Shown in pieces: positions 19,997 through 42,320 of a DNA stretch of 64,000 nucleotides. Position 1 is the stretch's first letter. Every line of letters begins with the position of its first letter. Source of the stretch: Acidobacteriaceae bacterium (GTDB lineage Bacteria > Acidobacteriota > Terriglobia > Terriglobales > Acidobacteriaceae); NCBI GenBank assembly GCA_035482415.1, contig DATHQT010000057.1, positions 105,944-169,943 of the forward strand, in the 5' to 3' direction. The notes beneath the pieces are model-generated. The model saw nothing but the letters and a program-made list of their open reading frames with translations, was not told where the DNA came from and did no database searches. The translations under genes were made by a program, and so were the position numbers.

Positions 19997-20070
19997 CTCA
20001 TTGCGGACCGCCGGATCCCGTGGACGAGACGAACCACAGAATTGCTATCAAGCCAAATTTATGGAGGACT

Positions 20071-24603: not shown

Positions 24604-24613
24604 TTCAGATTTC

Positions 24614-27600
24614 CTATGGCTGGGTTTCCGGTGTCGACGCTTGCGGAACGTAGTTGAACTTGAATGAGCGATCCACCGCACCCGACTCAAAGCGGGTGTT
24701 GTACTCGAGCTGATAGGCCGTGTGAGCAGCGTCCGTCGGGTAGTGCTCGGTTGCCGGATAGGGATAGCTGCTCATCCCATGGAAGGGCAGGCTGCCGACG
24801 CTGAACGGTCTGGCCTCGTAGAAGTCCATGTCCTTCACAAAGCCATTCGCGTAAAAGAAGTAGTCGCGCGACCAACCCTTGGGCAGCGCGGGGAGAGTGG
24901 CCGCGCTAAACTCCAGGTCCATGTCCTCACCAGTTCCGAAGATCACGAACTCGTCGTCAATCGCGTGCAGGAGCGGCGTCACATCGCCGTATCGCGTGTA
25001 CGCTCCGCGATGTGGAACGAAGGGCCCAGTGGCGCTCATACGCTGATAGTTGTAGGTGAGGTCGCCCGGCGTGCGCCCATCCAGCTGTTGCGGATATCCG
25101 CGGAAGGCCAGCGTGGCATGGGCCAGCGGAAGCTCAGTGGACTGCGTTGCTAACCCCGCGTTATCAGGCTGCTGTGGTGGCGAGGCTTCGTTGTCGACCA
25201 GCGCCTGGTCCCAGTAAATTTGCAGGTTGGTTGTGATGCGCAAACGCGTTACGCCGGCAGGAAACTTGCCCGTGAGATCAACCGTGACGGTGCGCGGCAA
25301 GCCGGCAGGAAAGCCCATGTCGGCAACCACCTTTCGCCAGGAACCATCGGGCATCTGAGCCTCAATATACGGCGGAATGGGCGAGAGGCCCGCCTGCCAT
25401 GCAGAGTACATAGAACTCGCTGAGAAGTATTCGATGAACCCATGCAGCAGAAGTTGGAGAGGCCACTGCGGCGACCACGCCCCAATGTCGATGGTCAACG
25501 AATGAAGATTTGCGAAGCCAGCGAATGGAAGGTTGGTGAAGTCGCGGACATAAGTCCGTGTCTCGCGATCACTGATATTGCGCTGGCGGAGCACGTCGAG
25601 CACGTTGTTGCCGTGGTCGTCCCAGGCGCCGGCCAGCGGACGCGCGGCTGCGGCAACGATTGTCTTTTCCTTGGCGAAGGGCCGCTCGGAGAGAAAACCT
25701 TCGTTGGGAAAGACACTCGTCCCGGACGGGTGATCGATGGCGACCAGCCGAACCTGGTCGACAAAGTTGACCTCCTCCATGGGCTCGCCGAAGCGAAGAC
25801 TGAAGAGTCCGTTGCGCTGCTGCAGTTGATCACCCTCCACCTTGATCCACTCGTCGGGGTCTGGAATATTTGTGCGCGCAGGCGACACCCAGTGACCAAT
25901 CACCGCCGCGCCGATCACATCCGCGACGAAGTTGTAGCGGGTTCCATTCCATGCAAAGAGGGTTGGGCACGAACTCCCGCGACGATCGATCTCGGTAATG
26001 GGATGCAGGTCGCTCGCCGCGACATCGATCTCATCCTGCGGAACTCCGGTGGGCCACAGCAGTCTCACCAGGTCCGCCTTGTCTGCGCTGCCAAGGCCGG
26101 CAAGAATCTCGCGCTGGCCGGTATCCTCCCACTTCTGCCAGAGCCCATTTGCGAAGACCTGAACCTTGGTGCCGATACCAGTCTTGTTGTCCGCAGCGCC
26201 ATGCAGCACGACGTGCAGCGAGTGGTTGCGGTTGCCACCGACATTCGCAAGCAGCACGCTCGAGCCGTCCGCGTGGGTCACAATCAAATCCGCAGCGCCC
26301 GTGTGATTTACGTCGTCCGCAAGCAGCGAGCGCGGTGAGCGAAGATGGATTTCATTCAGTTTGAGTTCTGCGCTGACATCCACGAAGCCGGCGGGTCCAA
26401 GATTGCGCAGCACTCGAAGTTCAGGACCACGCCGCGTTTGCACCAGCGCTGCAATATCAATCCAGCCGTCATTGTCGAAGTCAATCGGGATCGCCGCTGT
26501 GGCGCTGAGAACGTCCTTCATCGGCAGTGTAACGCGCTCGAAGTTTTTGCCATCGACGTTGCGCCAAAGCGTCACGCCCGGTTCGCTGGAGTGCGACAGA
26601 AGTACATCCATCCACCCATCCTTATTGAAGTCCAGGGTAGCAACCGAGACGGTCGGCGGCAGGCTCGCCGTGTACAGTGGCGAAGACCCGAACGGTCCTT
26701 CACGATGATTCGAGAAGAAGGTAGGAGCAGAGGTTTTGCCCGCCACCAGTAGATCCACGGCACGGTCATTGTTCAGATCTGAAAGGATTGCCGCAGACGT
26801 CGGAGCCGTCCCTTCAAGTCCGGCCGGCTTGGTCCAATCCGTGAAGGTCTTGTTGCCGTTGTTGCGCCACAGCGCGTTGGCCGATCCATGCGAGGCCGTC
26901 GGAGTTCCTGTGATGAAGAGGTCGAGATCCCCATCATGGTCATAGTCGACGAACATCAGGCTGGTCGGGTGGCTGGTATCCGAAATGCCAGAGACGGCAG
27001 TGGCATCTTCAAATTTCCCGTTGCCAAGATTGCGATAGAGCGCGATGCGATCCTGTCCATCCGGGCTGGTCACCGCCAGCGCCAGGTCCGGAAGTCCATC
27101 GTTGTCAAAATCGCCGACGGCGCACGCGAGACCCGTGCCAGCGAGGTGAATGCCCGTAACGGTGGAGGGAACTTCCGCAAATCGAGTCGAACCCGCGCGG
27201 TCAAACACGCGGATAGCATCGTCGCCTTTGCCCATCAGGATAATCGCTGGTTCGTTGTCGGATGATGGATCCAGGAGGCATGCTGCGCCGCTCATGCCGG
27301 TCGTTGCCGTGGCCGCAGGGTGCGAGCTCCACGACTCGCGGAACGTGACCGGGATCATCGCTTCAACGCGGGTCGGCGCAAGCGCAGCATCTTCCACGCG
27401 CGCGTAGATTCCTTCCTCTCCATAGTTGTGCGAGAGCGGCGTCCCGAGCTTGGTGGAGCTGATATGTTGAAAGCGAGCAAGAGCCTGCTGGGCGCCGGCC
27501 GTGTCCCCTTCGCGGCGAAGAACGCGCGCAAGACCAAACAAAGCAGAAGCGTGATGCGGGTCCAGCTCCAGCGCCTTCTGATACTCCGCCTTCGCGGCTG

Positions 27601-28087
27601 AAAGATTGTTCAGCTCGAAATCGACGGACGCAATCATGTAGTGCGTGTCAGGATCGCCCGGCCGAAGCGCGGCAACCTTCTGGAAGGCCTCCAGAGCTTT
27701 GTCTGGTTGATTCTCGTTGCGATAGAGCAGACCAAGGGCATACCAGACATGAGGATCCTTCGGATCTTCGACGGCCGCCGCCTCAAACAGTTGCTTCGCG
27801 TCCGGCAGCTTCTGCAGATACATGAGGGCGATGCCTTCATTCACCTTGGCCAGGGTGAGGCTCGGATCGGCCTTGGCTGCGGCGGCAAAGGTGCTGACCG
27901 CGCGGTCGAGGAACTGCTGGCCTACCAGCGCAGTCCCGAGATTGTTGAGGCGCGCCGCCTCAATCGCTGAGGTCTGCTGCTGGGCGCGGAGCATCGGGGA
28001 AAATGCCGCTGAAATGACCACCACACCCAGGCTCAGGCGCCGCGTGGCTCGTGCTGCAATGTTGCGTTCATCGAAGAAGACAGGCAT
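24614..28087 (-). CDS. 1157-aa exported TPR + FG-GAP/VCBS repeat + ASPIC/UnbV protein (CRTAC1-like) with a long C-terminal extension
   Basis: Signal peptide and N-terminal TPRs (AVEDPKDPHVWYALGLLYRNENQPDKALEAFQKV...). Repeated FG-GAP/VCBS motifs follow (GDFDNDGLPDLAL, VDYDHDGDLDLFI, DFNKDGWMDVLL, DFDNDGWIDIA). ASPIC/UnbV-like segment: NHSLHVVLHGAADNKTGIGTKVQV. Confidence 0.8.
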   Translation of the reverse strand: MPVFFDERNIAARATRRLSLGVVVISAAFSPMLRAQQQTSAIEAARLNNLGTALVGQQFLDRAVSTFAAAAKADPSLTLAKVNEGIALMYLQKLPDAKQLFEAAAVEDPKDPHVWYALGLLYRNENQPDKALEAFQKVAALRPGDPDTHYMIASVDFELNNLSAAKAEYQKALELDPHHASALFGLARVLRREGDTAGAQQALARFQHISSTKLGTPLSHNYGEEGIYARVEDAALAPTRVEAMIPVTFRESWSSHPAATATTGMSGAACLLDPSSDNEPAIILMGKGDDAIRVFDRAGSTRFAEVPSTVTGIHLAGTGLACAVGDFDNDGLPDLALAVTSPDGQDRIALYRNLGNGKFEDATAVSGISDTSHPTSLMFVDYDHDGDLDLFITGTPTASHGSANALWRNNGNKTFTDWTKPAGLEGTAPTSAAILSDLNNDRAVDLLVAGKTSAPTFFSNHREGPFGSSPLYTASLPPTVSVATLDFNKDGWMDVLLSHSSEPGVTLWRNVDGKNFERVTLPMKDVLSATAAIPIDFDNDGWIDIAALVQTRRGPELRVLRNLGPAGFVDVSAELKLNEIHLRSPRSLLADDVNHTGAADLIVTHADGSSVLLANVGGNRNHSLHVVLHGAADNKTGIGTKVQVFANGLWQKWEDTGQREILAGLGSADKADLVRLLWPTGVPQDEIDVAASDLHPITEIDRRGSSCPTLFAWNGTRYNFVADVIGAAVIGHWVSPARTNIPDPDEWIKVEGDQLQQRNGLFSLRFGEPMEEVNFVDQVRLVAIDHPSGTSVFPNEGFLSERPFAKEKTIVAAAARPLAGAWDDHGNNVLDVLRQRNISDRETRTYVRDFTNLPFAGFANLHSLTIDIGAWSPQWPLQLLLHGFIEYFSASSMYSAWQAGLSPIPPYIEAQMPDGSWRKVVADMGFPAGLPRTVTVDLTGKFPAGVTRLRITTNLQIYWDQALVDNEASPPQQPDNAGLATQSTELPLAHATLAFRGYPQQLDGRTPGDLTYNYQRMSATGPFVPHRGAYTRYGDVTPLLHAIDDEFVIFGTGEDMDLEFSAATLPALPKGWSRDYFFYANGFVKDMDFYEARPFSVGSLPFHGMSSYPYPATEHYPTDAAHTAYQLEYNTRFESGAVDRSFKFNYVPQASTPETQP

Positions 28088-30429: not shown

Positions 30430-31625
30430 GCGCGCATCTCCGTTGCCAGCCTCAGCGCAGAGTCTTCCTTGCGCGCGGCCAGGATCAGGCTACTGGGTTG
30501 GTACTCGGGCACAAGGAACTGAATCGCGCGTAGCAGTTCCTGCAAGTCGCGCCCACGGGCAGCATCGCGGAGCGTGTCCAGTGCATCGCTCATCTCCGCC
30601 GCAGCAGGTATCGGGGTGTGGATGGTCCGCAGACCCGAGCCACCGAGCTCATCTTGCGAACGCAGCGACTCGGGGCTCGAAACAAGCTGTTCGGAAAGCT
30701 TGTCGCCAGGGCGCAACCCGGTGAATTCGATGGACGCCAGGCTTTGGTGGTGCGCAATTAGATATCGCGCCAAGTCGAGGATGCGGACCGCAGGACCGAC
30801 GCTGGGGAGAATGAGCGCCTTGTCGGATTCCACATCCAGCGCGGCGAATAGTACTCGGACAGCTTCGTCCAACGTGATGAAGTAGCGCTGCGCCTCGGGG
30901 TGGGTTACGCTGACCGGGCCGCCCAAGGCAATCTGCTCAAGAAACAATGGAAGCACGCTGCCCTGCGAACCCATCACGTTGCACAGGCGCGCCACCTTCA
31001 TGCGTGTGGAACCCGGCAGGCTGAGAAGAAGGAGCTCTGCGATGCGTTTGGACGCGCCCATGATACTGCGCGGTTCAACCGCCTTGTCCGTGGAGACGAG
31101 AACAATCTGTTCTACCTCGTGTGCGATCGCAGAATGCGCCAGGGCATACGTGCCGAACACGTTCTGTTCAATGGCCGCAAACGGATTTTGTTCCATCAAT
31201 GGAACGTGCTTCAGAGCTGCTGCGTGGAAGATGATCTCGGGTCGATGCTCCGTCAAGGCACGATCGAGCGTATCGGAATTGCAGACGTCGCCGAGAAGGG
31301 AAACATGTTCTCTCGAACCAGCCTCATGCAGACTGCGATCGACCTGGTAGAGCCCATTCTCCGAGCTGTCGAGGAGCACCAGGCTGGCAGGCAGGGACGC
31401 CGCCGCTGCATGCGACAAGGCCGATCCGATGGACCCTCCCGCTCCCGTAATCAGAACGCGTCTTCCTGTCAGGGACCGCGATCCGAGCAGCCGCCAACTC
31501 GCCGGAGAGCTCGGTGCGATCAGCCGGTCCCAGAACACGGCACCGTGACCCTGGGGCCCGGCAATGCGAAGATCCGTTGAAGCCGCCGTTTGCATGTGTC
31601 TACAGTCTAGAGAATTTCTCCGCAT
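30426..31625 (-). CDS. Soluble CapD/PglF/PseB-like NAD-dependent nucleotide-sugar 4,6-dehydratase
   Basis: Rossmann motif GRRVLITGAGGSIGSAL. FHAAALKHVPLME is typical of the CapD/FlaA1 group. No TM domain. The start could also be the internal ATG (MQTAAS...). Confidence 0.8.
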   Translation of the reverse strand: MRRNSLDCRHMQTAASTDLRIAGPQGHGAVFWDRLIAPSSPASWRLLGSRSLTGRRVLITGAGGSIGSALSHAAAASLPASLVLLDSSENGLYQVDRSLHEAGSREHVSLLGDVCNSDTLDRALTEHRPEIIFHAAALKHVPLMEQNPFAAIEQNVFGTYALAHSAIAHEVEQIVLVSTDKAVEPRSIMGASKRIAELLLLSLPGSTRMKVARLCNVMGSQGSVLPLFLEQIALGGPVSVTHPEAQRYFITLDEAVRVLFAALDVESDKALILPSVGPAVRILDLARYLIAHHQSLASIEFTGLRPGDKLSEQLVSSPESLRSQDELGGSGLRTIHTPIPAAAEMSDALDTLRDAARGRDLQELLRAIQFLVPEYQPSSLILAARKEDSALRLATEMRA

Positions 31626-31805
31626 CGGTCACAACTGCCGGTTTCTGCGTGCAATACCCGGCGTGTCCATCGATCGGTGGAGGAGGACACCCTTCAATAA
31701 GTCCAATACGCCACACGTCTAAGTTGGTATACCTGAATCATCTCCCAACGATCAGAAGCTTGAAAGAGCGCGCCGGCGGACCGTTCCGCTTGCGCGAAGG
31801 CCTTT

Positions 31806-33284
31806 ATGGACGTCGTCGGGAAGATCGCATGTGCAGGTTTGGGTATAGCCCTGTGCTTTGGGTGTGAGGCGGCTGCCTTCACGCAGCGTGCCACGCAGCC
31901 CGGCATTTCCGTCGCCGCGAAGAGGTTGCAGGGTCCCACAGACATCGCCTTCATTCAGACGCTCGAATTCAGACCGGGCAATCCCGCGCAGCGCTTTCCG
32001 CTTGGCAGCCGGCTCGTGCGCTTGCGCCTCGGGGCCGATGGCACGGCATCCTCCATTGCCACCCCCCTGACGCTACAGTTCTTTGCCGCTGCTGATCCCC
32101 AGGTCTCTTTCGACGGCAGCGAGCTGCTCTTCGCCGGCCAAGCCCAGCGCGGCGCCACGTGGCAGATATGGGCGATGCCGGTGGACGGCGGGGCTTCACG
32201 GCAGATCACTCATTGCGCCGGAGATTGTGTCCAGCCCGCGTACCTGCCGGGTGGCGAGATCGCTTACACGTCGCTGCGAGGCGCGGAACCTGCCCGTGCG
32301 TCGGAGGTGCAAGTCTGCCGCAACGACGGATCTGATGTGCATCCGATTACGTTTGGGCCCGGCAGGTACGAAATCGAGGCCGTTTTGCGCAGCGGCCGAC
32401 TGCTGCTGTCTGCCGAGTCGCCGCTGGGGGACAGCCGTGAGGCAGAACCGCTGCGAACACTGTATCTGGTCGACCCGGATGGGTCAGGGTTGATGCGGCT
32501 GCGACAAGACGATCGTGCGCGGGCTACTCATAGCAGCGCTGTCGAGCTGGCGGACGGGACCATCCTCTTCATGCAGCGGAATGCGACGAGCACTTCGGAA
32601 GGGCGCCTCGCCTGGATCCGTCCCGGAGCCTTGAACGCCACGGCCATCGAGCACACGCATTCGGAATATGCGTCGGCGACCGCGCTCGACGATGAGACGC
32701 TGCTGGTATCGCGGCGCGCCCCGGGACTTCGCTTCGATCTGTATCAACTCTCTCTAAACAGTGGCGGCCGCGAGCAGTTGCTCTACCGGGATGCGCACGC
32801 GTCGAGCGTTCAGGCCGTTCATATTGTTCCCCATCCCGCAGCGCTCGCTTACCGCAGCATTTTGCATCCGGATCGTACATCCGGACGCATCATTTGTCTC
32901 GACGCCTATGCTTCCAAAGATTTTGCTAACGGTCGCTTGCCCGGGCCGATCGTGCGCGTGCGAGCTCTCATGAAGACGCAGAGCGGCGAGAAGATTCTGG
33001 GAGAAGCCCCGGTCGAACGCGACGGATCGTTTTACGCGACAGTGCCCGCGGATCTGCCGATACGCCTGCAGTTGATTGGCGCAGAGGGTGAAGTTCTGAA
33101 GCAGCAGCGCAGCTGGATGTGGGTGCGTAATGGGGAAGATCGCGGATGCGTTGGGTGCCATGAGAGCCAGGCGCTGACGCCAGAGAATCGTTCGCCAATG
33201 ACCTTGCAGCGCCTCGATACACCGACGCCGCTCATGGGTGAACGGGTCTCTAACCCAGGCACGCAGAAGGGAGCGCGACCTTGA
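31806..33284 (+). CDS. Exported PD40/TolB-like beta-propeller protein with a C-terminal single CxxCH haem-c motif (HzsA-middle-domain-like candidate)
   Basis: Hydrophobic N-terminus IACAGLGIALCFGC. PD40-like blades (GSELLFAGQAQRGATWQIWAMPVDGGASRQIT; LYLVDPDGSGLMRL). The C-terminus reads WMWVRNGEDRGCVGCHE, with CVGCH at nt 33147-33161. Confidence 0.55.
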   Translation: MDVVGKIACAGLGIALCFGCEAAAFTQRATQPGISVAAKRLQGPTDIAFIQTLEFRPGNPAQRFPLGSRLVRLRLGADGTASSIATPLTLQFFAAADPQVSFDGSELLFAGQAQRGATWQIWAMPVDGGASRQITHCAGDCVQPAYLPGGEIAYTSLRGAEPARASEVQVCRNDGSDVHPITFGPGRYEIEAVLRSGRLLLSAESPLGDSREAEPLRTLYLVDPDGSGLMRLRQDDRARATHSSAVELADGTILFMQRNATSTSEGRLAWIRPGALNATAIEHTHSEYASATALDDETLLVSRRAPGLRFDLYQLSLNSGGREQLLYRDAHASSVQAVHIVPHPAALAYRSILHPDRTSGRIICLDAYASKDFANGRLPGPIVRVRALMKTQSGEKILGEAPVERDGSFYATVPADLPIRLQLIGAEGEVLKQQRSWMWVRNGEDRGCVGCHESQALTPENRSPMTLQRLDTPTPLMGERVSNPGTQKGARP

Positions 33285-34996
33285 GAGCTTCACTGAAAAT
33301 TTGCACGGTGTTCATTGCAATCTCATTGCCGGCATTCGCTGGGCGGTCCACTGCGCAGACAGCCGCTGTTGCGGTAGACAAGGTAACCCATGCGATTCCG
33401 CTTCCGCAGTTCGAGGATGTGACGAAGAAGTCCGGGATCGACTTCCAACACTCCTTCGGCGAAAAGACCTTGAGTTCGATCCAGGAGGGAACAGGATCGG
33501 GCTGCGCCTGGATCGACTACAACAACGACGGGTGGATGGATCTCTACATCGTGAACGGACGGCATGTCGATGGGCTCACCGACCACTCTGCACCGGATGG
33601 GATGGACGCGACCAACCACCTCTATCGCAACAATGGCGACGGCACCTTCACCGACGTAACGGTGCAGGCGGGTGTTCCGGGCAATGGCTTCGGTGTCGGC
33701 ATCACGGCGGGAGACTTCGACAACGATGGCAACGAGGACCTCTACGTCACCAATTACAACTCGGCGATCTTGTATCACAACAACGGAAATGGGGCCTTTA
33801 CGGACATTACTGCGAAGGCCGGCGTGACCAACCTGAACTTCGGAACGGGCGCCGCCTTCCTCGATTATGACCGCGACGGACGCCTTGATCTCTTCGTCGG
33901 CAACTACCTGAAGTACGATCCCAGCAACCGGCAGTTTTATTCAGCGCAGCAATACCCGGGGCCGCTCGAATACGCGCCGGAGACCAATCGGCTCTTCCAT
34001 AACAACGGCGACGGAACATTCACCGATGTCTCCACGGCATCCGGCATCAGCGCTCAGCCCGGGCGTGCCATGGGCGTCACGGTCGGAGACTTTGACGGCG
34101 ATGGATGGCCCGACGTCTACGTTGCGAATGACACCATGGCAAGCTTCCTCTATCACAACAATCGCAACGGTACGTTCACCGATGTCGCCGCCGAAATGGG
34201 CGCGGCCTACGGACAGAACGGCGAGGCTTCCACCGCGATGGGTCCCGTCTTCGGGGACTATGAGAACAAGGGACGCCAGGGGTTATTCGTCTCCGATGCC
34301 CACTTTCACCGGCTGCTGCGCAACAGCGGCAAGCCGGGCGAGCCGTTCGAAGATGTGACCAACGAATCAGGGGTCGGAGCGGTCTCAGGACAGTTTGTTG
34401 GCTGGGGCGATGGCCTCTTCGACTTCGATAACGATGGATGGAAGGACCTGTTCATCGTGAATGGCGGCCTGGTGTGGCTCATCCCCCAACAGAGTTCGCT
34501 GCTGCGCAACAACGGCGACGGGACATTCGCGGACATCTCCCTGCAGGCGGGAAGCTTCTTCTCAACCCAGATTGTCAGCCGCGGTGCCTGCTTTGCTGAC
34601 TACGACAATGATGGATATGTCGACGCGTTTGTCGTAACACTGGGCGGCAAGGGAATTCTGCTGCACAACACGCCGCCGGCAGTGAAGCGCAATCATTGGC
34701 TGACGATCAAGCTGGTGGGGACGCGCAGTAATCGCGACGGCTATGGAGCCAGCCTCGAGGCAATTGCCGGAGACCTGCACCAATGGGTGCAGTCCACGTC
34801 GGCCAGCGGATACCTCTCGCAGAATGATCCGCGTCCACACTTCGGCCTGGGTCAGCATGAGGTCGTGGATACCCTGACAATTCATTGGCCCAGCGGAACC
34901 GTCCAGACCCTGCACGATATCCGGGCGGACCAGGTACTCAAGATCACCGAGCCCGCCGCAAGCGGCGTTACCCCTACAAAGGGGAAGACGCCATGA
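33281..34996 (+). CDS. CRTAC1-like protein (FG-GAP/VCBS repeats + ASPIC/UnbV)
   Basis: Signal peptide ICTVFIAISLPAFAGRSTAQ. Repeats: IDYNNDGWMDLYIVNG, GDFDNDGNEDLYVTN, LDYDRDGRLDLFVGN, GDFDGDGWPDVYVAN, FDFDNDGWKDLFIVNG, ADYDNDGYVDAFV. ASPIC/UnbV segment: NHWLTIKLVGTRSNRDGYGASLE...SGYLSQNDPRPHFGLG. The TTG start overlaps the upstream stop (TTGA). Confidence 0.8.
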   Translation: MRASLKICTVFIAISLPAFAGRSTAQTAAVAVDKVTHAIPLPQFEDVTKKSGIDFQHSFGEKTLSSIQEGTGSGCAWIDYNNDGWMDLYIVNGRHVDGLTDHSAPDGMDATNHLYRNNGDGTFTDVTVQAGVPGNGFGVGITAGDFDNDGNEDLYVTNYNSAILYHNNGNGAFTDITAKAGVTNLNFGTGAAFLDYDRDGRLDLFVGNYLKYDPSNRQFYSAQQYPGPLEYAPETNRLFHNNGDGTFTDVSTASGISAQPGRAMGVTVGDFDGDGWPDVYVANDTMASFLYHNNRNGTFTDVAAEMGAAYGQNGEASTAMGPVFGDYENKGRQGLFVSDAHFHRLLRNSGKPGEPFEDVTNESGVGAVSGQFVGWGDGLFDFDNDGWKDLFIVNGGLVWLIPQQSSLLRNNGDGTFADISLQAGSFFSTQIVSRGACFADYDNDGYVDAFVVTLGGKGILLHNTPPAVKRNHWLTIKLVGTRSNRDGYGASLEAIAGDLHQWVQSTSASGYLSQNDPRPHFGLGQHEVVDTLTIHWPSGTVQTLHDIRADQVLKITEPAASGVTPTKGKTP

Positions 34997-36969
34997 CCTG
35001 CGCCAGGGATCGTGCTTCGTCGCGCGTTCCCCGTCGAGACGAAGCCTTCCTCGGAATCGCGTTGCTGTCCGTGGTCATCACGCTGACCATGTTCGTGGCT
35101 CAGCAGCAGAAACCTGCCGCCGCGGCAGAACACGTGCCCGCGCCCGAAGCTGCCACCCGCTATCTAAGCCCAGTCGCCCTGCAACTCTCGCCGGATGGTC
35201 AACGCCTGTACGTTGTCTGCGAGGACAGTGACGCAGTGCTCGCGGTCGATACGCGCTCTCAACGCGTAGTGGGCCGTGCAGAGGTGGGCAAGCGGCCGAA
35301 GGGAATCGCAATCTCGCCGGACGGAAAGTCGCTCTACGTCTCCGAAGAGGCCAGCGATGCGGTGACTGAAATCGATGCGCAGACATTGGTAATCCGCCGC
35401 ACCATCCGTGTGGGCTGGAGTCCCGTAGGTCTGGTCACCGATCGTGCAGGAACCACGCTGTACGTCGCCAACACGCTCGGCGATGACGTATCGGTCATCG
35501 ATCTGCTCACCGGAACGGAGACGAAGCGGCTTCATGCCGGCCGTTTTCCAGAGTATGTCGCTCTTTCGCGCGATGGCAGCCGCGTGTACGTTGCAAATCT
35601 CCTGGCGCGCCTGGGTCCGCCGGATCAACCACCCGTGTCCGAGTTGACCGTGATTGACTGCACGAAGCAGCAGATCGCCGCGCGCCTCGATGTTCCGGGA
35701 GTACTCCAACTGCGCCACATCGTGGAGCTGCCGCTCGCTGCAGGAGGCTATCTGCTTATCCCGTTCCTGCGTCCCAAAAACCTTAACCCGTTGGTGCAGA
35801 TCCAGCAGGGCGGCTATCTGACTCATGGCATGGCAGTGATTCGGCCCTCCGCCACGAGCGGAGGGGAAGCGCTCGACTACAAGGTATCCGAGGTACTGCT
35901 GGACGATATCGATCGTTCCTACGCGGATGGATTTGGCGTCGCCGCAACGCCCGACGGACACCGGGCGCTGGTGACCGCTTCCGGATCGAACATCGTTTCC
36001 ATCGTCGATACATCAAGGCTTCGAACGATGCTTCTGAACAGCACGTCGATGCGCCGGCGGGAGCTCGCAAATCGGCTAGACTCGGCCCATATTTTCGTCA
36101 CCGCTCGCCTGCCCACAGGCCGCAATCCAACCGACGTCGTCACCTCGACCGACGGGCGCTTCGCCTACATTGCCAATCGCATGGACGACACGATCGACGT
36201 GCTGAACATGACGCGGTTGCAGCTCGCAACGACGATTGACCTCGGTGGTCCCCGGCTGCTTTCGCGTAATCGCAGAGGGCAGCAACTCTTTTTTGACGCG
36301 AGCCATTGCTACCAGGGGCAGATGGCGTGCGCGACGTGTCACCCGCATGAGGGGCTTTCCGATGGCCTCGCGTGGAGCCTCGAGACGCCGCAACTCGGTC
36401 GTGATGTCGTGGAGAATCGCACGCTCTACAGCATCGAGGGGACCGAACCCTTCAAGTGGAATGGCAAGAATCCAGACCTTGAAACACAGGACGGCCCGCG
36501 CACTGCCATGTATATCTTCCGCAGCCAGGGATTCAGTTCAAGCGAAGTAGACGACCTGGTCAACTACATCTTTTCGCTGCACCTCGCGAGAAATCCTCAC
36601 CTCGCCGCAGATGGGCAGATGACTGCCGCGCAGGCCCGCGGCCAGGTGCTGTTCTTTCGCGAAACGACCAGCAGCGGTGTGCCGATCTCCGCCTTACAGC
36701 AGTGCCCGACGTGCCACTCTCCGCTGACGCATTTCACCTCGAAGATTCAAATCGATTTGGGCACAGCAACGAAATATGACACCATCACGGCATTCGACGT
36801 TCCGCAGTTGGAAGGCGCCGTCATGAAGCCTCCTTACCTGCACAACGGCGAGGCACTCGAGCTGGAAGAGATCTGGACGCGATTCAATCCGGAGGATAAA
36901 CACGGCCTCACATCCGACATGAACAAGGCGCAGCTCAACGATTTGATCGAGTACCTGAAGACATTATGA
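34993..36969 (+). CDS. Membrane-anchored YVTN-type beta-propeller fused to a di-haem cytochrome c peroxidase/MauG-like domain
   Basis: TM anchor FLGIALLSVVITLTMFVA. YVTN-like repeats: GQRLYVVCEDSDAVLAVD, GKSLYVSEEASDAVTEID, GTTLYVANTLGDDVSVID, GSRVYVAN, GRFAYIANRMDDTIDVL. Two CxxCH motifs: CATCH at nt 36328-36342 and CPTCH at nt 36703-36717. ATG 34993 forms an ATGA overlap with the upstream stop. Confidence 0.7.
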   Translation: MTCARDRASSRVPRRDEAFLGIALLSVVITLTMFVAQQQKPAAAAEHVPAPEAATRYLSPVALQLSPDGQRLYVVCEDSDAVLAVDTRSQRVVGRAEVGKRPKGIAISPDGKSLYVSEEASDAVTEIDAQTLVIRRTIRVGWSPVGLVTDRAGTTLYVANTLGDDVSVIDLLTGTETKRLHAGRFPEYVALSRDGSRVYVANLLARLGPPDQPPVSELTVIDCTKQQIAARLDVPGVLQLRHIVELPLAAGGYLLIPFLRPKNLNPLVQIQQGGYLTHGMAVIRPSATSGGEALDYKVSEVLLDDIDRSYADGFGVAATPDGHRALVTASGSNIVSIVDTSRLRTMLLNSTSMRRRELANRLDSAHIFVTARLPTGRNPTDVVTSTDGRFAYIANRMDDTIDVLNMTRLQLATTIDLGGPRLLSRNRRGQQLFFDASHCYQGQMACATCHPHEGLSDGLAWSLETPQLGRDVVENRTLYSIEGTEPFKWNGKNPDLETQDGPRTAMYIFRSQGFSSSEVDDLVNYIFSLHLARNPHLAADGQMTAAQARGQVLFFRETTSSGVPISALQQCPTCHSPLTHFTSKIQIDLGTATKYDTITAFDVPQLEGAVMKPPYLHNGEALELEEIWTRFNPEDKHGLTSDMNKAQLNDLIEYLKTL

Positions 36970-38111
36970 GACCGGCAATGAATGCGAACAAAATCACGAG
37001 CGTACTCCGAAGGGCTCTTCTGAGTGTGGCATTGCCACTCGCCGCACTGCCGTGCGTCCGTGCACAGGCGCCGGCGCCGGATCGGGCGGCCAAACCCGCG
37101 CTCTACACGAAGTGGATCAATTACACCGCGGCGAACGGATTTCCAGAGGGTGAGGTGTATTGCGTGACGGTCGACGGCACACGCGTATGGGCCGGGACAT
37201 CGCATGGACTCGTCCTGCTCGAAGGTGGCCGCGTGAAGAAAGTGTTCACGCCAGAAGATGGCTTAGCCGGCCGTGCGGTGATGTCGATCGCGGTCGACAA
37301 ACAAAACGGCGATGTGTGGGTGGGAACTTTCGGCGGCCTGAGTCTTTATTCGGGTGGGAAATTCCAGAGCTTCACAAACCTCAACAGCGGCCTCGCCAAC
37401 GATCTCGTGTATGGCGTCGCGATGCAGGGGCAATTTCTTTGGGTTGCAACAGCCGCCGGAGTCAATCGCCTCGATACAAACTCTGGAAGCTGGTCGATCT
37501 TCAATGAAACCAATGCACCGTTCAATGAGCCATGGGCCTACGGAATCTCAGTTGCTCAGCAGAAGGTGTACTTCGCCGTCTGGGGCGGGGGAGTTCTGGC
37601 ATACGATCTCGCAAAAGAAACCTGGAAGCCGTTCACCGACCCCGACGGGGAGCAAGAACTAGTTCTCTATCGAAACCAGGGGTTGATCCACAACATCGTC
37701 AGCAGCGTTTCTTACAACACGGACACGAAGACGTTTTGGGCCTCCACCTACTTTGGTCTCAGCAGCTACGATGGCCGAAACTGGCACAACTACCTCACCA
37801 AGGACAGCGGACTGGCCTCAAATTTCATCAACGCCGTACAGTCGCGCGGCGACAACGTATGGGCCTCCACGCAGAGCGGCCTGAGCCAGCTCGACACCAG
37901 AACCAACACCTGGATCACCTATAACCGGAATCAAAAAACCGGGCGCGGCGAGATCCTCGTCACGAGCGCGGATGGCGGCAAGCAACGGATCGCCACGGAG
38001 ACCAGCCTGGCGCACAGCTACATTCTCAACACAGCATTTCAAGGCGACGACATCTGGGTGGCGACCGCACAGGGTCTGAGCCATGGTATCCGCGCACAAC
38101 CGAAGGAGTAA
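36966..38111 (+). CDS. Exported beta-propeller protein with two-component-regulator-propeller (Reg_prop)-like repeats
   Basis: Signal peptide LLSVALPLAALPCVRAQA. Repeated motifs of the form GxxVxxIAVDxxGxVWVGTxxGLSxY: VYCVTVDGTRVWAGTSHGLVLL, VMSIAVDKQNGDVWVGTFGGLSLY, VYGVAMQGQFLWVATAAGVNRL, INAVQSRGDNVWASTQSGLSQL. ATGA overlap with the upstream stop. Confidence 0.6.
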   Translation: MRPAMNANKITSVLRRALLSVALPLAALPCVRAQAPAPDRAAKPALYTKWINYTAANGFPEGEVYCVTVDGTRVWAGTSHGLVLLEGGRVKKVFTPEDGLAGRAVMSIAVDKQNGDVWVGTFGGLSLYSGGKFQSFTNLNSGLANDLVYGVAMQGQFLWVATAAGVNRLDTNSGSWSIFNETNAPFNEPWAYGISVAQQKVYFAVWGGGVLAYDLAKETWKPFTDPDGEQELVLYRNQGLIHNIVSSVSYNTDTKTFWASTYFGLSSYDGRNWHNYLTKDSGLASNFINAVQSRGDNVWASTQSGLSQLDTRTNTWITYNRNQKTGRGEILVTSADGGKQRIATETSLAHSYILNTAFQGDDIWVATAQGLSHGIRAQPKE

Positions 38112-38116
38112 AGACT

Positions 38117-38641
38117 ATGAGCCCCACGATCGTAGCAACGCACAACATGACGAATGAAACCATAGGCGCACACAAGCCGATTCGCAAAAAGGCGATGTCC
38201 GCTCCCAAGGCGCTCAACGAGGCCTACAAGTACCAGCGCCCCTCGTCCTTCTCGCGCGGCATGCGCCTGGACATCAAGGGCATTACCATCCTGATGATCT
38301 CGGGGACAGCCAGCGTTGGAGAAAACGGCGAGACCGTTCATCCCGGCGACTTCGGCGCACAAACCAAACGCGCCTACCAGAACGTCACCGAGCTGCTGAA
38401 GTCCGAAGGCGCTACCTGGAAAGACGTGGTCCGCACAACCTGCTACCTCCGCGACATTGAGCGCGACTACGAGCAATTCAATCTGATCCGCACGGAGTTC
38501 TTCAAAGAACAGGGCCTCGAAATCCTGCCAGCCTCCACCGGCATCCAGGCCATCCTCTGCTGGCCAACCCTTCTCTATGAGATGGAAGCCATGGCAATCT
38601 TCGAAACACCTGCATCCATCGATCCGCCGCACTTGAGATAG
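38117..38641 (+). CDS. RidA/YjgF-superfamily protein (possibly a chorismatase-like FkbO/Hyg5/XanB2 single domain)
   Basis: [62 protein letters not shown]. The ISGTAS variant, rather than the classical RidA SGQ, recalls the chorismatase group. AAGGAG RBS. It starts 6 nt after the upstream stop. Confidence 0.65.
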
Positions 38642-38661
38642 CCAAGGTAAGGAGCTCCAAC

Positions 38662-39588
38662 ATGAACCAGAAGATTGCAGGTCAAGTGAGCCTCGAGGAC
38701 CTTTCGCGGATCTGTCCGACGATCAGTCGCCGTATGCACCCCGAGTTTGGCGAGTGTTGCGGTTTTGAAGTGGAAGTCGGCACAGTGCGGTTCGGCACTA
38801 AAGTCCCGGTCGTGATTGCAGGACCGTGCGCCGTTGAAAGCGAGCGGCAGATGATCGAGGTCGCCCTCGCGGTGAAGGCGGCTGGTGCAGACATGTTGCG
38901 CGGCGGCGCCTTCAAACCACGCACCTCGCCGCATGACTTTCAGGGGCTGGGCCTGGAAGGGCTCAAAATTCTGCGGGCCGCAAGCATTCTCACCGGCCTT
39001 CCTGTCGTCACGGAAGTTTTGGACGTTCGGCTGGTCGAACTGGTCAGCCAATACGCGGACATGTTGCAGATCGGCTCGCGCAGCATGCAGAATTATCCGT
39101 TGCTCGTCGAGGCGGGGCGCAGCGGCAAGCCTGTTCTCTTGAAGCGCAGCATGGCGGCGAGCCTGTGCGAATGGCTGGGCGCGGCTGAGTACATTGCCAA
39201 CGAAGGAAACCTGAACATCGTTCTCTGCGAGCGTGGAATCAAAACCCACACTGCCGGAGAATACTCGCGCTACGCTCTCGATCTCAACGTGGTTCCCGCT
39301 GCGCATGCGGAGACATTTCTTCCAGTGATCGTGGACCCAAGTCATGCGACCGGTGTGGCATCCAGGGTGGAGCAGGCAAGCCGCGCAGCCATTGAATTTG
39401 GCAGCGATGGCTTGTTGATCGAGGTCTCGACTTGGGACCGCGATCCCGACTCGCGGCGGCCATTATGCGATGCCGACCAGGCAATCACCCCTGAGACGCT
39501 GGCCAGAATCGTCGAATTTATCCGCGAACGGGAAGCCGCCGCGCAGTACAGTACCGACCCGGCGATGCTACTCGGGTCAGAGCACTAG
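38662..39588 (+). CDS. 3-deoxy-7-phosphoheptulonate (DAHP) synthase, class I-beta (KDO8PS-related)
   Basis: [65 protein letters not shown] and IVDPSHATG match class I-beta DAHPS. Confidence 0.85.
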
Positions 39589-39617
39589 AGGTGATTGTCG
39601 ATCCGGAGATTCGAACG

Positions 39618-40967
39618 ATGAAGACGAAACGATGTGTTGCGGTTCTGCTAGTGGCCGCGAGCGGTTTGCTGGCAGCGCACGCCAATGCGCAAGCGACCTC
39701 GCCGGCCACTCGCGCAGAAAAGGCCGAAGTGCCGTACGGGAATATGCCGCCCGCTGCCAGGCCTTTTGCGAACTACCGCAAGCCATACCAGGAGTGGTAC
39801 GTGCAGCCGGACTCGCTCGATTATGGTGGCGCTGCGCGAAGCGAACCGGATGGAGATGTAACCGCGCTCAAGACAATCAACATCGGCTTTCTCGGCCCCC
39901 TGGACGCAGACAATGAAGACTCACCCTATGGAATCGCCATGCTGCATGGCGCGCAACTCGCCATTGACGAGGTCAATGCAAGCGGGGGATATCGTCGCAA
40001 ACCCTTCGCTCTAATCATCCATGACGATCTCGCGCTATGGGGAGCTTCGTCGATGGCGATCGTTGACATGCGCTATAAGGATCAGGCGTGGGCGATGCTT
40101 GGCTCGGTTGACTCAGCGTCAACGCACGTCGAATTGCGCGCGACCTTGAAGCTCGAACTGCCGATCATGGATACCGCCACCAACGATCCCACCGTCACCC
40201 AGACACTCGTTCCGTGGCTGCTGCATAACTTTCCCGACGACCGGCAGCAAGGGTATGCGCTGGCCGATTACATCTTTCTGCAGCGTCACCTGAAACGTAT
40301 CGGCATCCTGCAGGTGAACAATCGCTACGGTCGGGTCGGAAAGGAAATATTCTCCGCAACAGCGCGCCGCATCGGTCGCCAGCCAGTTGTCGAAGTCTGG
40401 TTTGGCGCGGACACCACGGATTTTTCATCTCAATTACGCACAATCAACGCGAGTAACGTGGACGGCCTGGTCATCTGGGGCAATGCGGCAGAGGCAGGTC
40501 TCATCCTGAAACAGATGCGCGCTCTGGGAATGCAGCAACCGGTGTTTGGCAGCAGCCGTATTTGCAGTCCGGAGGTTATCAAGATTGCTGGCGCGGCATC
40601 CGAGGGTCTGACCGTTATCAGCGCCATCAATCCAACGCGCAACGATCCCACGTGGATGGCCTTCCAGCAACGGTTTGCAAAACGCTTCGGCGTCGAGCCG
40701 GATGCCTATGCCGCCTACGCTTACGATGGCGCAACGATGCTGATGGGCGCGATCAACCAGGCAGGCCTCAATCGCGGCCGCATCATGGATGCATTGCGCG
40801 GCTACGAGATGAAGCACTATGCAGGTGTGAGCGGAAGCGCCTTCTTCGATTACACGCTGAATAACATCGCCCCCGTTACGTTTGCCCAAATTCGCGACGG
40901 GAAGTTTGCCTACTGGCCAGAGCAGCGCACCGACTGGAAGCGCGCCGATGTGGCCAATGCGCGGTAG
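39618..40967 (+). CDS. Periplasmic LivK-type (Peripla_BP_6) substrate-binding protein
   Basis: Signal peptide MKTKRCVAVLLVAASGLLAAHANAQ. INIGFLGPLD...YGIAMLHGAQLAIDEVNASGGY is typical of branched-chain amino acid/urea-type SBPs. Confidence 0.75.
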   Translation: MKTKRCVAVLLVAASGLLAAHANAQATSPATRAEKAEVPYGNMPPAARPFANYRKPYQEWYVQPDSLDYGGAARSEPDGDVTALKTINIGFLGPLDADNEDSPYGIAMLHGAQLAIDEVNASGGYRRKPFALIIHDDLALWGASSMAIVDMRYKDQAWAMLGSVDSASTHVELRATLKLELPIMDTATNDPTVTQTLVPWLLHNFPDDRQQGYALADYIFLQRHLKRIGILQVNNRYGRVGKEIFSATARRIGRQPVVEVWFGADTTDFSSQLRTINASNVDGLVIWGNAAEAGLILKQMRALGMQQPVFGSSRICSPEVIKIAGAASEGLTVISAINPTRNDPTWMAFQQRFAKRFGVEPDAYAAYAYDGATMLMGAINQAGLNRGRIMDALRGYEMKHYAGVSGSAFFDYTLNNIAPVTFAQIRDGKFAYWPEQRTDWKRADVANAR

Positions 40968-42132
40968 GGAACTGGGTTGCTACGCTGTCATCGTTGCGTT
41001 GCTGCAACTAGGATGTGTCGCGCCGGCGCGCGCCCAGACCACGACGCCGTACGCTTCCATCTCCACAGAGGTGGAAAGCTACGCAGGGCCGGGGCGAGCG
41101 TCCGCAAACGATTTGACTGGCCAGGTGGTTCGGATTGGGCTGCTCGCTCCACTGCAGGGTGCACGCAAGGCCGAGGGCGAGGCGATGATAGCAGCCGCTC
41201 AGATGGCACTGCGCGACACGGCGTCGCAGCGGTTGAGCCGGCGCCGCGTAGCGTTGGCCGTGGAGGACTCGAGCGGGTCGACCTGGGGCATGGTCTCCGA
41301 TGCGGTGATCCGTCTCATGCTCAACGACGAGTCAATTGCAGTGATCACGTCCACCAGCAGAGCGGATGCTCACTTGTGTGAGCAGGTTGGCAACCGGATC
41401 GGCGTCCCTGTGCTGACGCTCTCCGCGGACGCAACCACGACCCAGATTGATATTCCATGGATCTTCCGCATGGGCCCGAGCGATGCCGCAGAGGCACAGG
41501 TGATCGCCCAGGATATGTATAGCGTGCGCAAGCTTCACAACGTGCTGCTGATCACACAACACGACCGTGAGGGCGATCGTGCCGCCCAGGAAATGAAGCA
41601 AGCCGCATTAGGCCTCGGTGCGCCGGCCCCTCACGTGATCTCTCTCGATGAAGCACCACTAGATCCTGGATCCATCGTGAGAGCGATCCAGTCTGAGTCT
41701 CCACAAGCGATCGTCATTTGGACGAGTCCAACGACCGCGGCAATCCTATTACGCGCACTTCAAATTGCAGGAGTGAAAACCATCTGCTACCTTTCGCAGA
41801 ATGCAAGCTCCGAGATGCACGACGCGTCGACGAGCGAATCAACCGCCAGTGAGACCTGGACCATCGCCGGCAATGATGAACCAACCGGCACCCGCCAGAG
41901 TTTTGCAGACCGCTTCCGTCGATCGACAGGGACAGCCCCAACTCTTGTCGCGAGCCAGACCTACGATGCGGTGATTCTAACCGTGCATGCATTGCAGACA
42001 GCAGGCCCGAATCGTGCGCGTGTCCGGGATGAGATTGCCAAGGCCAACCAGTACGACGGGGTGTCTGGCAAAATCTCCTTCGACTGCGAAGGCAACGACC
42101 GCGCCGCCCTGCACCTGGTCCAATTGAAGTAG
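40948..42132 (+). CDS. Second LivK-type (Peripla_BP_6) substrate-binding protein
   Basis: Signal GCYAVIVALLQLGCVAPARAQ. VRIGLLAPLQGARKAEGEAMIAAAQMALRD. The start is taken at ATG 40948 (or 40957), overlapping the end of the upstream SBP gene. The track start 40882 is an upstream extension. Confidence 0.7.
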   Translation: MWPMRGRELGCYAVIVALLQLGCVAPARAQTTTPYASISTEVESYAGPGRASANDLTGQVVRIGLLAPLQGARKAEGEAMIAAAQMALRDTASQRLSRRRVALAVEDSSGSTWGMVSDAVIRLMLNDESIAVITSTSRADAHLCEQVGNRIGVPVLTLSADATTTQIDIPWIFRMGPSDAAEAQVIAQDMYSVRKLHNVLLITQHDREGDRAAQEMKQAALGLGAPAPHVISLDEAPLDPGSIVRAIQSESPQAIVIWTSPTTAAILLRALQIAGVKTICYLSQNASSEMHDASTSESTASETWTIAGNDEPTGTRQSFADRFRRSTGTAPTLVASQTYDAVILTVHALQTAGPNRARVRDEIAKANQYDGVSGKISFDCEGNDRAALHLVQLK

Positions 42133-42320
42133 CTGGCTGCCTCCGCCAACTCGGCGCAAGCGGTTGGGTGAGAGAGCCATCTCGCTAACGCCTTGTGATT
42201 ACAGTGTCAGGGGTTGAATCGACGGCCAGCCCTATCCGGGTGTAGCTCTCAGGCATTACTATGGATCGCGAACTAAAGCGCTTTACGAAATAACGATAGA
42301 GTAGCTCTCCGGAGAGATCC

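Follow-up and report, generated by a model that had tools for sequence, protein, structure and literature searches.

The subject of this analysis is a tightly packed array of eight same-strand genes, g1 to g8 (Table 1), in a 64-kb window of DNA from an Acidobacteriaceae bacterium (contig DATHQT010000057.1; "the window" refers throughout to the whole stretch of 64,000 nucleotides). Two of the encoded proteins, g1 and g3, resemble the subunits of hydrazine synthase (HZS), an enzyme that to our knowledge was long thought to be without relatives. The original prediction, made from the sequence alone, had placed the host among the acidobacteria, which agrees with our assignment to the Acidobacteriaceae near Granulicella; the closest genome is that of Granulicella sp. 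L46, with 73 to 92% protein identity across the region.

The first four genes (31806-38111) had been described in that prediction as a module of their own, and a check of the open reading frames (ORFs) and the sequence found the four same-strand genes, their 4-nt overlaps, and the CxxCH haem motifs all where they had been claimed. The junctions read TTGA for g1/g2 (33281-33284), ATGA for g2/g3 (34993-34996), and ATGA for g3/g4 (36966-36969). Such overlaps are common in bacterial operons and by themselves unremarkable, and they are not universal in related loci, with gaps of 2 to 121 nt at some junctions in L005 and L006. Beyond g4 the tight array reaches 42132, with gaps of +5, +20, and +2 nt plus one overlap. 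The longest ORF of g3 begins at a TTG at 34885, and homologues of 651 to 663 amino acids (aa) favor the ATG at 34993. For g8, the longest ORF has a TTG start and overlaps g7 by 86 nt (40882-40967), and the real start is more likely a later in-frame start just before a signal-peptide-like segment (…MWPMRGRELGCYAVIVALLQLGC…); the match to g8 is in two pieces in several relatives (L002, L004, L013, and L015). A promoter and terminator scan of 31000-43000 gave fewer matches than shuffled controls and defined no operon boundaries. All four proteins g1 to g4 have a hydrophobic N terminus, modeled by AlphaFold2 as a helix at residues 4 to 19 in g1 and 15 to 37 in g3, from which we infer that they are exported.

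Table 1. Genes and sequence features discussed in the text. Positions are those of the window. The last two columns give, for each cassette protein, the median identity to the window in distant Acidobacteriaceae loci and the identity in L088 to L091, which are four loci of other phyla or unclassified metagenome-assembled genomes (MAGs).
Feature	Position	Strand	Description	Distant Acidobacteriaceae	L088-L091
g1	31806..33284	+	492 aa, ATG start; short HzsA-related protein (alpha)	45%	28-33%
g2	33281..34996	+	571 aa, TTG start; predicted exported CRTAC1-family protein	71%	39-47%
g3	34993..36969	+	658 aa, ATG start; predicted membrane-anchored HZS-beta-like/HZS-gamma-like fusion (beta-gamma)	59%	36-42%
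g4	36966..38111	+	381 aa; predicted exported stand-alone Reg_prop beta-propeller	66%	43-50%
g5	38117..38641	+	cytoplasmic Rid/YjgF-family protein (Rid-like)	75%	61-63%
g6	38662..39588	+	cytoplasmic type I-beta 3-deoxy-7-phosphoheptulonate (DAHP) synthase	70%	51%
g7	39591..40967	+	exported LivJ-like (Peripla_BP_6) solute-binding protein (binding protein 1)	64%	42-44%
g8	40882..42132	+	second Peripla_BP_6 binding protein, fast-evolving (binding protein 2)	43%	27-31%
CVGCH haem motif of g1 (C448, C451, H452)	33147..33161	+	aligns to haem alpha-I CxxCH of HZS		
g3 loop, residues 257-279 (PFLRPKNLNPLVQIQQGGYLTHG)	35761..35829	+	counterpart of HZS-beta loop 245-260 near the inter-haem tunnel		
CATCH, first haem site of g3 (C446, C449, H450)	36328..36342	+	aligned to HZS-gamma CASCH; counterpart of catalytic gamma-I/peroxidatic haem		
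Trp489 codon of g3	36457..36459	+	'PFKWNG' aligned with HZS 'PFRHEG'; position of gamma-His144 and of the inter-haem Trp of bacterial cytochrome c peroxidase (bCCP) and MauG		
CPTCH, second haem site of g3 (C571, C574, H575)	36703..36717	+	counterpart of surface-exposed electron-transfer haem gamma-II		
His637 of g3	36901-36903	+	'DKHG' versus HZS 'DMHG'; invariant		
TPR + FG-GAP + ASPIC-like protein	24614..28087	-	exported, 1157 aa; identified with Pfam; 3.7 kb upstream of g1, opposite strand		

In g1, a signal sequence is followed by a PD40/TolB-like propeller and then by an HZS_alpha middle domain, which holds a single c-type haem site. The Pfam model HZS_alpha (PF18582) matches residues 393 to 453 with an E value of 8.8e-20 (71.5 bits versus a gathering threshold of 26.6), and the sole significant sequence match in the PDB is HZS-alpha itself (5C2V_A; 8e-17, or 1.7e-27 with a 54-sequence profile). 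The same chain is the best PDB fold match of the AlphaFold2 model (mean predicted local distance difference test score [pLDDT] of 77.8; E value of 5e-24, TMq of 0.57), followed by TolB at 2.5e-12, and homologues of g1 carry the NCBI name "HzsA-related protein." The NCBIfam model hydrazine_alpha gives 89.5 bits on g1 versus an equivalog cut-off of 800. The wider short-alpha family comprises 711 clusters at 50% identity (E value of ≤1e-30), and the sources of some distant members name them as MAGs of Gemmatimonadota, Bacteroidales, Cyclobacteriaceae, Rhodothermales, or the FCB group.

The alpha haem motif is present in 117 of 120 full-length representatives of the wider family, likewise as a single CxxCH, and the 117 distant relatives share the surrounding signature W-x-W-x-[RM]-P-x-E-x-R-G-C-x-G-C-H-E; the family signature that holds the CVGCH of g1 reads W-x-W-x-R-x-G-E-x-R-G-C-x-G-C-H-E. 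The second (alpha-II) haem domain is absent from g1, which has one CxxCH and ends 40 residues after it. In HZS, the iron of haem alpha-I is ligated by Tyr591, and His587 of the motif binds zinc together with Cys303 (PMC12607021). No Tyr follows the haem His in g1 (CVGCHESQALTPENR), and none is conserved among the 117 distant relatives, the family consensus downstream of the motif being GCHE[DN]xxxxPxN; a 2-residue gap at the Tyr591 site has been reported for all such homologues (PMC12758564). Another cysteine of g1, Cys364 (32895-32897), belongs to the motif G-R-I-x-C-L-D. It is shared by all 54 Acidobacteriaceae homologues and is almost invariant among distant relatives, although the Gemmatimonadota protein has Ala. 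The published alignment does not pair this residue with the zinc ligand Cys303, and our profile-to-PDB alignment leaves the "CLD" motif uncovered.

The g3 protein is a seven-bladed YVTN propeller of the HZS-beta type fused to a di-haem domain of the HZS-gamma/bCCP/MauG type. Residues 56 to 405 match the whole chain of HZS-beta (5C2V_B; 9e-34), and residues 427 to 658 match HZS-gamma (5C2V_C; 7e-19). The best NCBIfam model is that of the beta-gamma fusion subunit, hydrazine_BC, with 166.8 bits (cut-off of 1250), and the separate beta and gamma models give 159.7 bits (cut-off of 560) and 79.6 bits (cut-off of 625), respectively. The Pfam model CCP_MauG also matches (4e-12, 47.4 bits versus a cut-off of 25.6), as does the TTQ_mauG model. 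A Foldseek search placed the g3 propeller on 5C2V_B with an E value of 9e-30 (TMt of 0.89), and generic propellers at 6e-21. The search found HZS-beta but not HZS-gamma, because the haem domain was poorly modeled, and the gamma homology of g3 rests on sequence.

All nine haem-binding Cys and His residues of g1 and g3 are invariant in 54 of 54 homologues of each protein, so conserved CxxCH cysteines, which the original prediction had expected, were found throughout. Judged from these invariant ligands, the haem sites of both proteins are functional. Trp489, Gln499, Arg503, and His637 of g3 are invariant as well and are also kept across phyla. In the HMMER alignment of g3 to 5C2V_C, the HZS-gamma residues His144, Cys165, and Asp168 correspond to Trp489, Asp500, and Thr504. 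The gamma-II haem of HZS is bis-His ligated and surface exposed and takes electrons from cytochrome c (PMC12607021). The alignment of His637 suggests that this residue is likely the second axial ligand of the C-terminal haem of g3, which would give bis-His ligation (His575/His637) as in HZS gamma-II. From a manual alignment based on bCCP and MauG motifs and on the HZS-gamma alignment, which is weaker evidence than a tool alignment, we take Phe631 to occupy the ligand position of bCCP Met275 and MauG Tyr294, and presumably Ile508 stands at the position of the bCCP catalytic Glu. The loop at residues 257 to 279 of g3 aligns to HZS-beta "tpknwlpvceaengqvftnn" and is among the most conserved stretches of the protein, also across phyla, with P257, P261, N263, L267, Q272, G273, Y275, T277, and G279 invariant; the Mg-binding Glu of the HZS-beta loop is replaced (LVQIQQGG versus CEAENGQ). 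AlphaFold2 confidence is low at residues 263 to 275 of this loop, which fits a partner-dependent element like the 245-260 loop of HZS-beta.

Taken together, sequence matches and predicted folds lead us to conclude that g1 and g3 share ancestry with HZS-alpha, -beta, and -gamma and that the resemblance is homology, not mimicry. The layout of an alpha subunit plus a fused beta-gamma subunit, which the original prediction had read from motifs, is borne out by the HZS_alpha match and by the sequence and fold matches to 5C2V; the hidden Markov model (HMM) searches proposed there placed g1 above the HZS_alpha threshold and g3 above that of CCP_MauG, and structure searches with the single g1 and g3 models returned 5C2V_A and 5C2V_B as the best folds. 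That these genes are homologous to HZS and belong to a conserved cassette is almost certain.

To assess how far the cassette is conserved, we used a profile built from g1 homologues to gather 80 metagenome loci and looked up individual distant homologues. Loci with <60% alpha identity were treated as distant, and only loci with enough DNA were counted for each gene. In distant Acidobacteriaceae loci, the gene order of the window was found for g2 (52/52), g3 (38/38), g4 (32/32), g5 (26/29), g6 (26/27), g7 (27/27), and g8 (23/24), and the eight-gene block 31806-42132 is kept in about 30 of them. The upstream flanks of these loci vary and include an efflux system, DsrE/Hdr-like genes, and glycoside hydrolases. 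Gene order is conserved far beyond chance, and the conserved unit consists of eight to ten genes rather than four, so the boundary at 38111 in the original prediction was drawn too early and is better set at 42132. Close relatives were covered as well: a scan of genome contigs with g1 recovered four near-identical, fully syntenic Acidobacteriaceae loci, which are uninformative on module conservation, and the Granulicella sp. L46 locus (L001) is syntenic with the window at 77 to 92% identity.

A rearranged version of the cassette occurs in other phyla. We inspected seven cross-phylum contexts (a Bacteroidales MAG, a Gemmatimonadota MAG, and several unclassified MAGs), five of which have enough downstream DNA. 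The CRTAC1 gene directly precedes the alpha and beta-gamma genes in 7 of 7, and the five longer loci all encode a Reg_prop-like propeller, two binding proteins, and a protein of ~1,190 aa with TPR, FG-GAP, and ASPIC domains (5/5 each); the Rid-like protein is present in 4/5 and the DAHP synthase in 3/5. The co-occurrence of g1 to g4 that had been predicted is therefore seen both in distant Acidobacteriaceae and, as a reordered set, in the Bacteroidales and Gemmatimonadota MAGs. The 1,157-aa protein encoded upstream of g1 in the window aligns in tblastn to the terminal gene of L088 to L091 with 28 to 37% identity, up to full length, and on this basis it is a homologue of the ~1,190-aa terminal cassette protein of the Bacteroidales, Gemmatimonadota, and unclassified loci. 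Across the cassette, the fastest-changing proteins are alpha and the second binding protein, and the slowest is the cytoplasmic Rid-like protein (Table 1).

Several of these loci have regulatory genes close by. Genes for an OmpR-type regulator and a HAMP histidine kinase are found just upstream of the cassette in L088 (6040-8089), L090 (4294-6409), and L093 (5717-7875), of which one is named Bacteroidales and two are unclassified, and two are next to SusC/SusD genes; in L094, a PAS kinase and a sigma-54 activator take their place. These adjacent regulators suggest that the cassette is inducible by some signal. In a few loci genes of the cassette are split into two or three ORFs, namely, the beta-gamma gene in L007 (12981-14963) and L091 (11461-13496) and a CRTAC1 gene in L090 (8279-9988), which could be pseudogenization or frameshift errors of long-read "contig_" assemblies.

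The partner genes encode recognizable families. The calls of g2 as a CRTAC1/ASPIC protein and of g4 as a Reg_prop propeller, both made in the original prediction, agree with the domain matches: g2 combines an FG-GAP/VCBS propeller with a UnbV_ASPIC domain (Pfam FG-GAP_3, 9e-51; UnbV_ASPIC, 1.6e-20) and matches human CRTAC1 (9ETN; 1.7e-19), and g4 matches Pfam Reg_prop (7e-10) and the PDB entries 4A2L (2e-25) and 3V9F (2e-18). A literature search on the functions of bacterial CRTAC1/UnbV proteins yielded nothing useful. The two PDB entries are propellers of Bacteroides hybrid two-component sensors, which are Reg_prop-type periplasmic ligand-sensing propellers related to g4. In contrast to those sensors, g4 is a stand-alone exported protein without kinase or regulator domains.

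The two cytoplasmic members of the cassette differ in how firmly they can be named. The g5 protein matches Pfam Ribonuc_L-PSP (5e-17), has an N-terminal extension of ~50 aa, and lacks a hydrophobic N terminus. Its "PAS" aligns to the "PAR" of RidA in 2dyy, 1j7h, and 7zs6, and PAST is kept across phyla; the catalytic Arg (Arg105 in Escherichia coli RidA numbering) is absent, and we reject g5 as a canonical RidA imine deaminase. The protein is also below all NCBIfam Rid cut-offs, and its match to the chorismatase model TIGR04444 is weak (7.5e-7) and far below the cut-off, so that a chorismatase function may be considered a lead. The g6 protein exceeds the cut-offs of NF006421 (344.9 bits versus 335) and TIGR01361 (311.5 bits versus 267.75) and matches PDB 1vs1 at 8e-77.

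Both g7 and g8 match Pfam Peripla_BP_6 (6e-46 and 2e-35, respectively). The best solved relatives of g7 are amino acid binders (PDB 4gnr, 2e-27). No permease or ATPase gene of an ATP-binding cassette (ABC) system was found in the cassette at any locus examined or within 10 kb in the window, and with no such gene nearby we reject the idea that g7 and g8 are part of a normal ABC importer.

The core of this cassette has been described before. Hagglund et al. (2025, Genome Biol Evol; PMC12758564) searched for relatives of HZS and reported co-localized alpha and beta-gamma homologues that fall into four clades. Clades I and II have an FG-GAP gene of the CRTAC1 family between the two, and clade II has a short alpha without haem alpha-II, a beta-gamma without extra haems, and two ABC-type binding-protein genes downstream. 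The window shares with clade II the order alpha, CRTAC1, and fused beta-gamma, the two downstream binding-protein genes, an alpha without haem alpha-II, two C-terminal haem motifs in beta-gamma, and Trp in place of gamma-His144. Nothing in the core differs, and judged by layout and gene features the window cassette matches clade II; the supplementary hit list of that paper includes the Granulicella sp. L46 orthologue of g3. The CRTAC1-first loci of other phyla fit the published features of clade III, with CRTAC1 upstream and an extra beta-gamma haem motif near residues 40 to 55. The paper assigns no function to clade II, and nothing is said in its main text about four genes that we find conserved with the core, namely, those for the Reg_prop propeller, Rid-like protein, DAHP synthase, and large TPR-CRTAC1 protein. 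Two other studies concern similar loci: PMC10732223 (FEMS Microbiol Lett 2023) described "hzs-like" genes in Phycisphaerae and KSB1 MAGs and proposed a broader family with alternative substrates, and PMC11828985 (Nat Commun 2025) described a "previously undescribed HzsA" of cold-seep MAGs and interpreted the genes as anammox potential in ten phyla including Acidobacteriota and Bacteroidota. The loci of both studies resemble ours in having an HzsA-like gene beside a fused HzsBC-like gene and Sec signal peptides, and the phyla with such pairs include Acidobacteriota, Bacteroidota, Gemmatimonadota, and others (PMC11828985, PMC10732223).

A CE15-type glucuronoyl esterase follows g8 (42321-43892, + strand) in the window and in close relatives, and a GMC-family flavin adenine dinucleotide (FAD) oxidoreductase without a signal peptide follows g8 in 12 of 23 distant Acidobacteriaceae loci (L005 to L007, L019, L027, and others) and is absent from the window. 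Between the TPR-CRTAC1 gene and g1 lie three sugar-nucleotide genes (28133-31625, - strand), identified by eye from their translations as a DegT-type aminotransferase, a NeuC-like UDP-GlcNAc 2-epimerase, and a CapD-like dehydratase; this trio keeps its synteny solely in close relatives (≥60% alpha identity), and distant loci do not have it. An amidase-signature enzyme (23179-24690, - strand; Pfam Amidase, 3.7e-100) is encoded directly downstream of the TPR gene, with a 77-nt same-strand overlap, an arrangement that suggests co-transcription of an ammonia-releasing amidase with the TPR + FG-GAP + ASPIC gene. A DUF3300/DUF2950 pair (18578-21009, + strand) followed by a PAS-domain HisKA_3-type histidine kinase (21071-23116, + strand) is unrelated to the cassette as far as tested. 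GC skew in the window is positive to ~32 kb, close to zero between 32 and 44 kb, and strongly negative (-0.09 to -0.28) from 44 kb to the end, independently of gene strand and with a cumulative peak at ~32 to 34 kb; the shift could mark a replication terminus or a compositional boundary. The 64-kb window contains no other c-type cytochrome ORF, as CxxCH occurs elsewhere in one short, probably spurious ORF. Because the window has no other genuine CxxCH ORF, there is no hydrazine dehydrogenase or cytochrome c partner nearby.

A direct comparison with the HzsABC of Kuenenia stuttgartiensis (5C2V; Dietl et al. 2015 as summarized in PMC12607021) shows what may have been kept and what has changed. 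Three building blocks are shared: alpha combines a propeller with a haem middle domain, beta is a seven-bladed propeller into which a loop is inserted, and gamma is a di-haem domain of the bCCP/MauG type, whose surface haem is bis-His in HZS. In contrast, g1 has 492 aa rather than about 800 and lacks the alpha-II haem domain and the Tyr591/Zn-type ligation, and g3 lacks the third haem-binding Cys165 and Asp168, has Trp for His144, and has lost the loop Glu. The gene order is reversed relative to HZS (alpha first), the CRTAC1 gene is inserted, and the cassette has additional genes; the 64-kb window has no hydrazine dehydrogenase gene, and the host is an aerobic-type acidobacterium. The haem domain of g3 can also be compared with bCCP and MauG (Pfam CCP_MauG), with which it shares the two CxxCH motifs in its C-terminal 230 residues and, partly by manual alignment, the inter-haem Trp (FKWNG versus FWDGR), the distal-pocket Gln, and a PYLHNG motif. 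It differs from them in being fused to a propeller and always paired with an HzsA-related haem protein and, by manual alignment, in having Phe at the Met275/Tyr294 site with a probable His ligand and Ile for the catalytic Glu.

We propose that g1 and g3 would associate into an HZS-like complex with three haems, anchored on the outer face of the inner membrane. The putative bis-His haem of g3 (His575/His637) would exchange electrons with an unlinked cytochrome c, and Trp489 would relay these electrons, as its counterpart does in bacterial di-haem peroxidases and MauG, to a five-coordinate haem (His450, with distal Gln499 and Arg503) that would activate a small oxidant such as H2O2, NO, hydroxylamine, or similar. 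The product or oxidizing equivalent would then move past the g3 loop at residues 257 to 279 to the His-ligated haem of g1, where a second substrate would react. Our best guess is that the two LivJ-like proteins would present this substrate and that it would be a small molecule, either nitrogenous or aromatic, and the CRTAC1 and Reg_prop proteins may be structural or ligand-binding partners. For the overall picture of a membrane-tethered, periplasmic, three-haem, HZS-like complex with two-site chemistry, we consider the chances evenly balanced, and that the two sites would be coupled by a channel falls slightly short of an even chance.

Several points weigh against this picture. Its subunit contacts, tunnel, and substrates are all assumed by analogy with HZS. 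The AlphaFold2 model of g3 is good in the propeller and poor in the haem domain, with pLDDT of <50 at residues 440 to 512 and 572 to 622. A plain peroxidase reaction by g3 is not assured, because the bCCP catalytic Glu is replaced (Ile508, by manual alignment). The cytoplasmic Rid-like protein and the DAHP synthase are left unexplained by a purely periplasmic enzyme, and the presence of four different propellers points to a scaffold for binding polymers or proteins no less than to a small-molecule enzyme.

In one alternative, the cassette would be an oxidative system outside the cytoplasm whose target is a polymer or phenolics. A glycan or matrix polymer would be bound by the propellers, and the haems would use peroxide to oxidize either that polymer or an aromatic mediator. 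The DAHP synthase and a chorismatase-like Rid protein would serve to make the mediator, which the LivJ-like proteins would bind. In favor of this, the solved relatives closest to g4 are glycan-sensing propellers, the weak chorismatase similarity of g5 stands beside a true DAHP synthase, and carbohydrate-related neighbors are frequent: the CE15 esterase in the window and GH30, pectate-lyase-like, GH31, and SusC/SusD genes in other loci. However, these neighbors vary by locus, and the phyla concerned are rich in carbohydrate genes anyway. The GMC oxidoreductase that follows the cassette in 12 of 23 distant Acidobacteriaceae loci would suit such a role, but the protein lacks a signal peptide, and the window does not encode it. 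Among solved structures, the best matches of g7 bind amino acids, not aromatic acids. We consider this explanation unlikely, if not without some appeal.

A MauG-like maturation machine is a further alternative, in which g3 would use H2O2 or O2 to oxidize residues at long range via Trp489, and a cassette partner (CRTAC1, Reg_prop, or alpha) would gain a cross-link or a protein-derived cofactor. The gene for MauG accompanies that of its propeller-containing substrate, and the obligatory co-encoding of g3 with several exported propellers is reminiscent of this. The CCP_MauG and TTQ_mauG matches of g3 and the invariant Trp489 at the hole-hopping position of MauG and bCCP point in the same direction. 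By manual alignment, however, g3 has Phe631 at the Tyr294/Met275 site and His637 as a probable ligand like that of HZS gamma-II, alpha keeps an invariant haem and middle domain of its own that would be needless in a mere substrate, and no conserved candidate target residue was identified. We regard such a role as quite unlikely.

Equally doubtful in our view, though of wider consequence, is a new periplasmic enzyme of nitrogen chemistry that would apply the two-haem, tunnel-coupled logic of HZS to other substrates. NO, hydroxylamine, or peroxide at the gamma-like haem would be coupled to an amine, amide, or amino acid at the alpha-like haem, so that an N-N or N-O bond would be made or broken. 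The orphan LivJ-like proteins would deliver the organic partner, and the Rid-like protein without its Arg and the DAHP synthase would process or supply that partner in the cytoplasm.

That the cassette is a genuine divergent hydrazine synthase, giving its host an anammox-like nitrogen-loss potential, is how similar genes in ten phyla were read by PMC11828985. The homology extends to all three HZS subunits, with beta and gamma fused as in Scalindua, and similar genes were reported to be transcribed and predicted to assemble (PMC11828985). In contrast, the residue and domain evidence from the window points the other way: the alpha-Tyr591-type ligation, alpha-II, gamma-Cys165, gamma-Asp168, gamma-His144, and the beta-loop Glu are all absent, and the scores of g1 and g3 are 6- to 9-fold under the NCBIfam equivalog cut-offs. 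The window contains no octahaem HAO/HDH gene or other cytochrome c gene. The host is a Granulicella-like member of the Acidobacteriaceae, and Granulicella are aerobic heterotrophs. The anammox-potential reading of PMC11828985 is thus not supported by the residues, host, or gene content of the window, and it was explicitly rejected by PMC12758564, which found the same residue differences and concluded that these proteins make no hydrazine. We consider a hydrazine synthase at this locus very improbable; the cassette very probably does not make hydrazine, and it does not indicate anammox.

Least credible of all, an ordinary operon of unrelated exported proteins, in which the likeness to HZS would come from generic propeller and cytochrome c domains, draws on the fact that propellers, CxxCH motifs, and 4-nt operon overlaps are all common, but it is already refuted by the HZS-specific middle domain that passes its Pfam threshold, by PDB sequence and fold matches that put HZS ahead of generic propellers (5e-24 versus 2.5e-12 for g1 and 9e-30 versus 6e-21 for g3), and by locus counts in which gene order is conserved across phyla.

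The HZS-like haem complex with two-site chemistry is the reading that we consider the most likely. The original prediction had named three points on which it would stand or fall, and HMM and fold likeness, co-occurrence of the genes, and conserved haem cysteines were all found. Its statement that no function had been assigned to such a module is still true, but the module itself had already been described (PMC12758564, PMC10732223, and PMC11828985). HZS-like clusters in non-anammox bacteria, including the clade II layout, were already known; new here are the larger conserved unit with the Reg_prop propeller, the Rid-like protein, the DAHP synthase, and the binding proteins and the rearranged version with the TPR-CRTAC1 gene.

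Whether HzsA-like genes represent hidden anammox is an open dispute, answered with yes by PMC11828985 and with no by PMC12758564. The window supports the latter side, as every hydrazine-specific feature that could be tested fails, and it calls for caution in using HzsA-like matches as anammox markers in soil metagenomes. If the nitrogen-chemistry explanation were true, the cassette would represent a widespread, unrecognized step of nitrogen turnover in soils and sediments, carried out by aerobic Acidobacteria, Bacteroidota, and Gemmatimonadota, and would show what hydrazine synthase evolved from. The cassette is present in cultivable Granulicella strains, and its soluble parts are the two binding proteins, the Rid-like enzyme, and the DAHP synthase; the ligands of these proteins could reveal the substrate of a very widespread family of haem enzymes.

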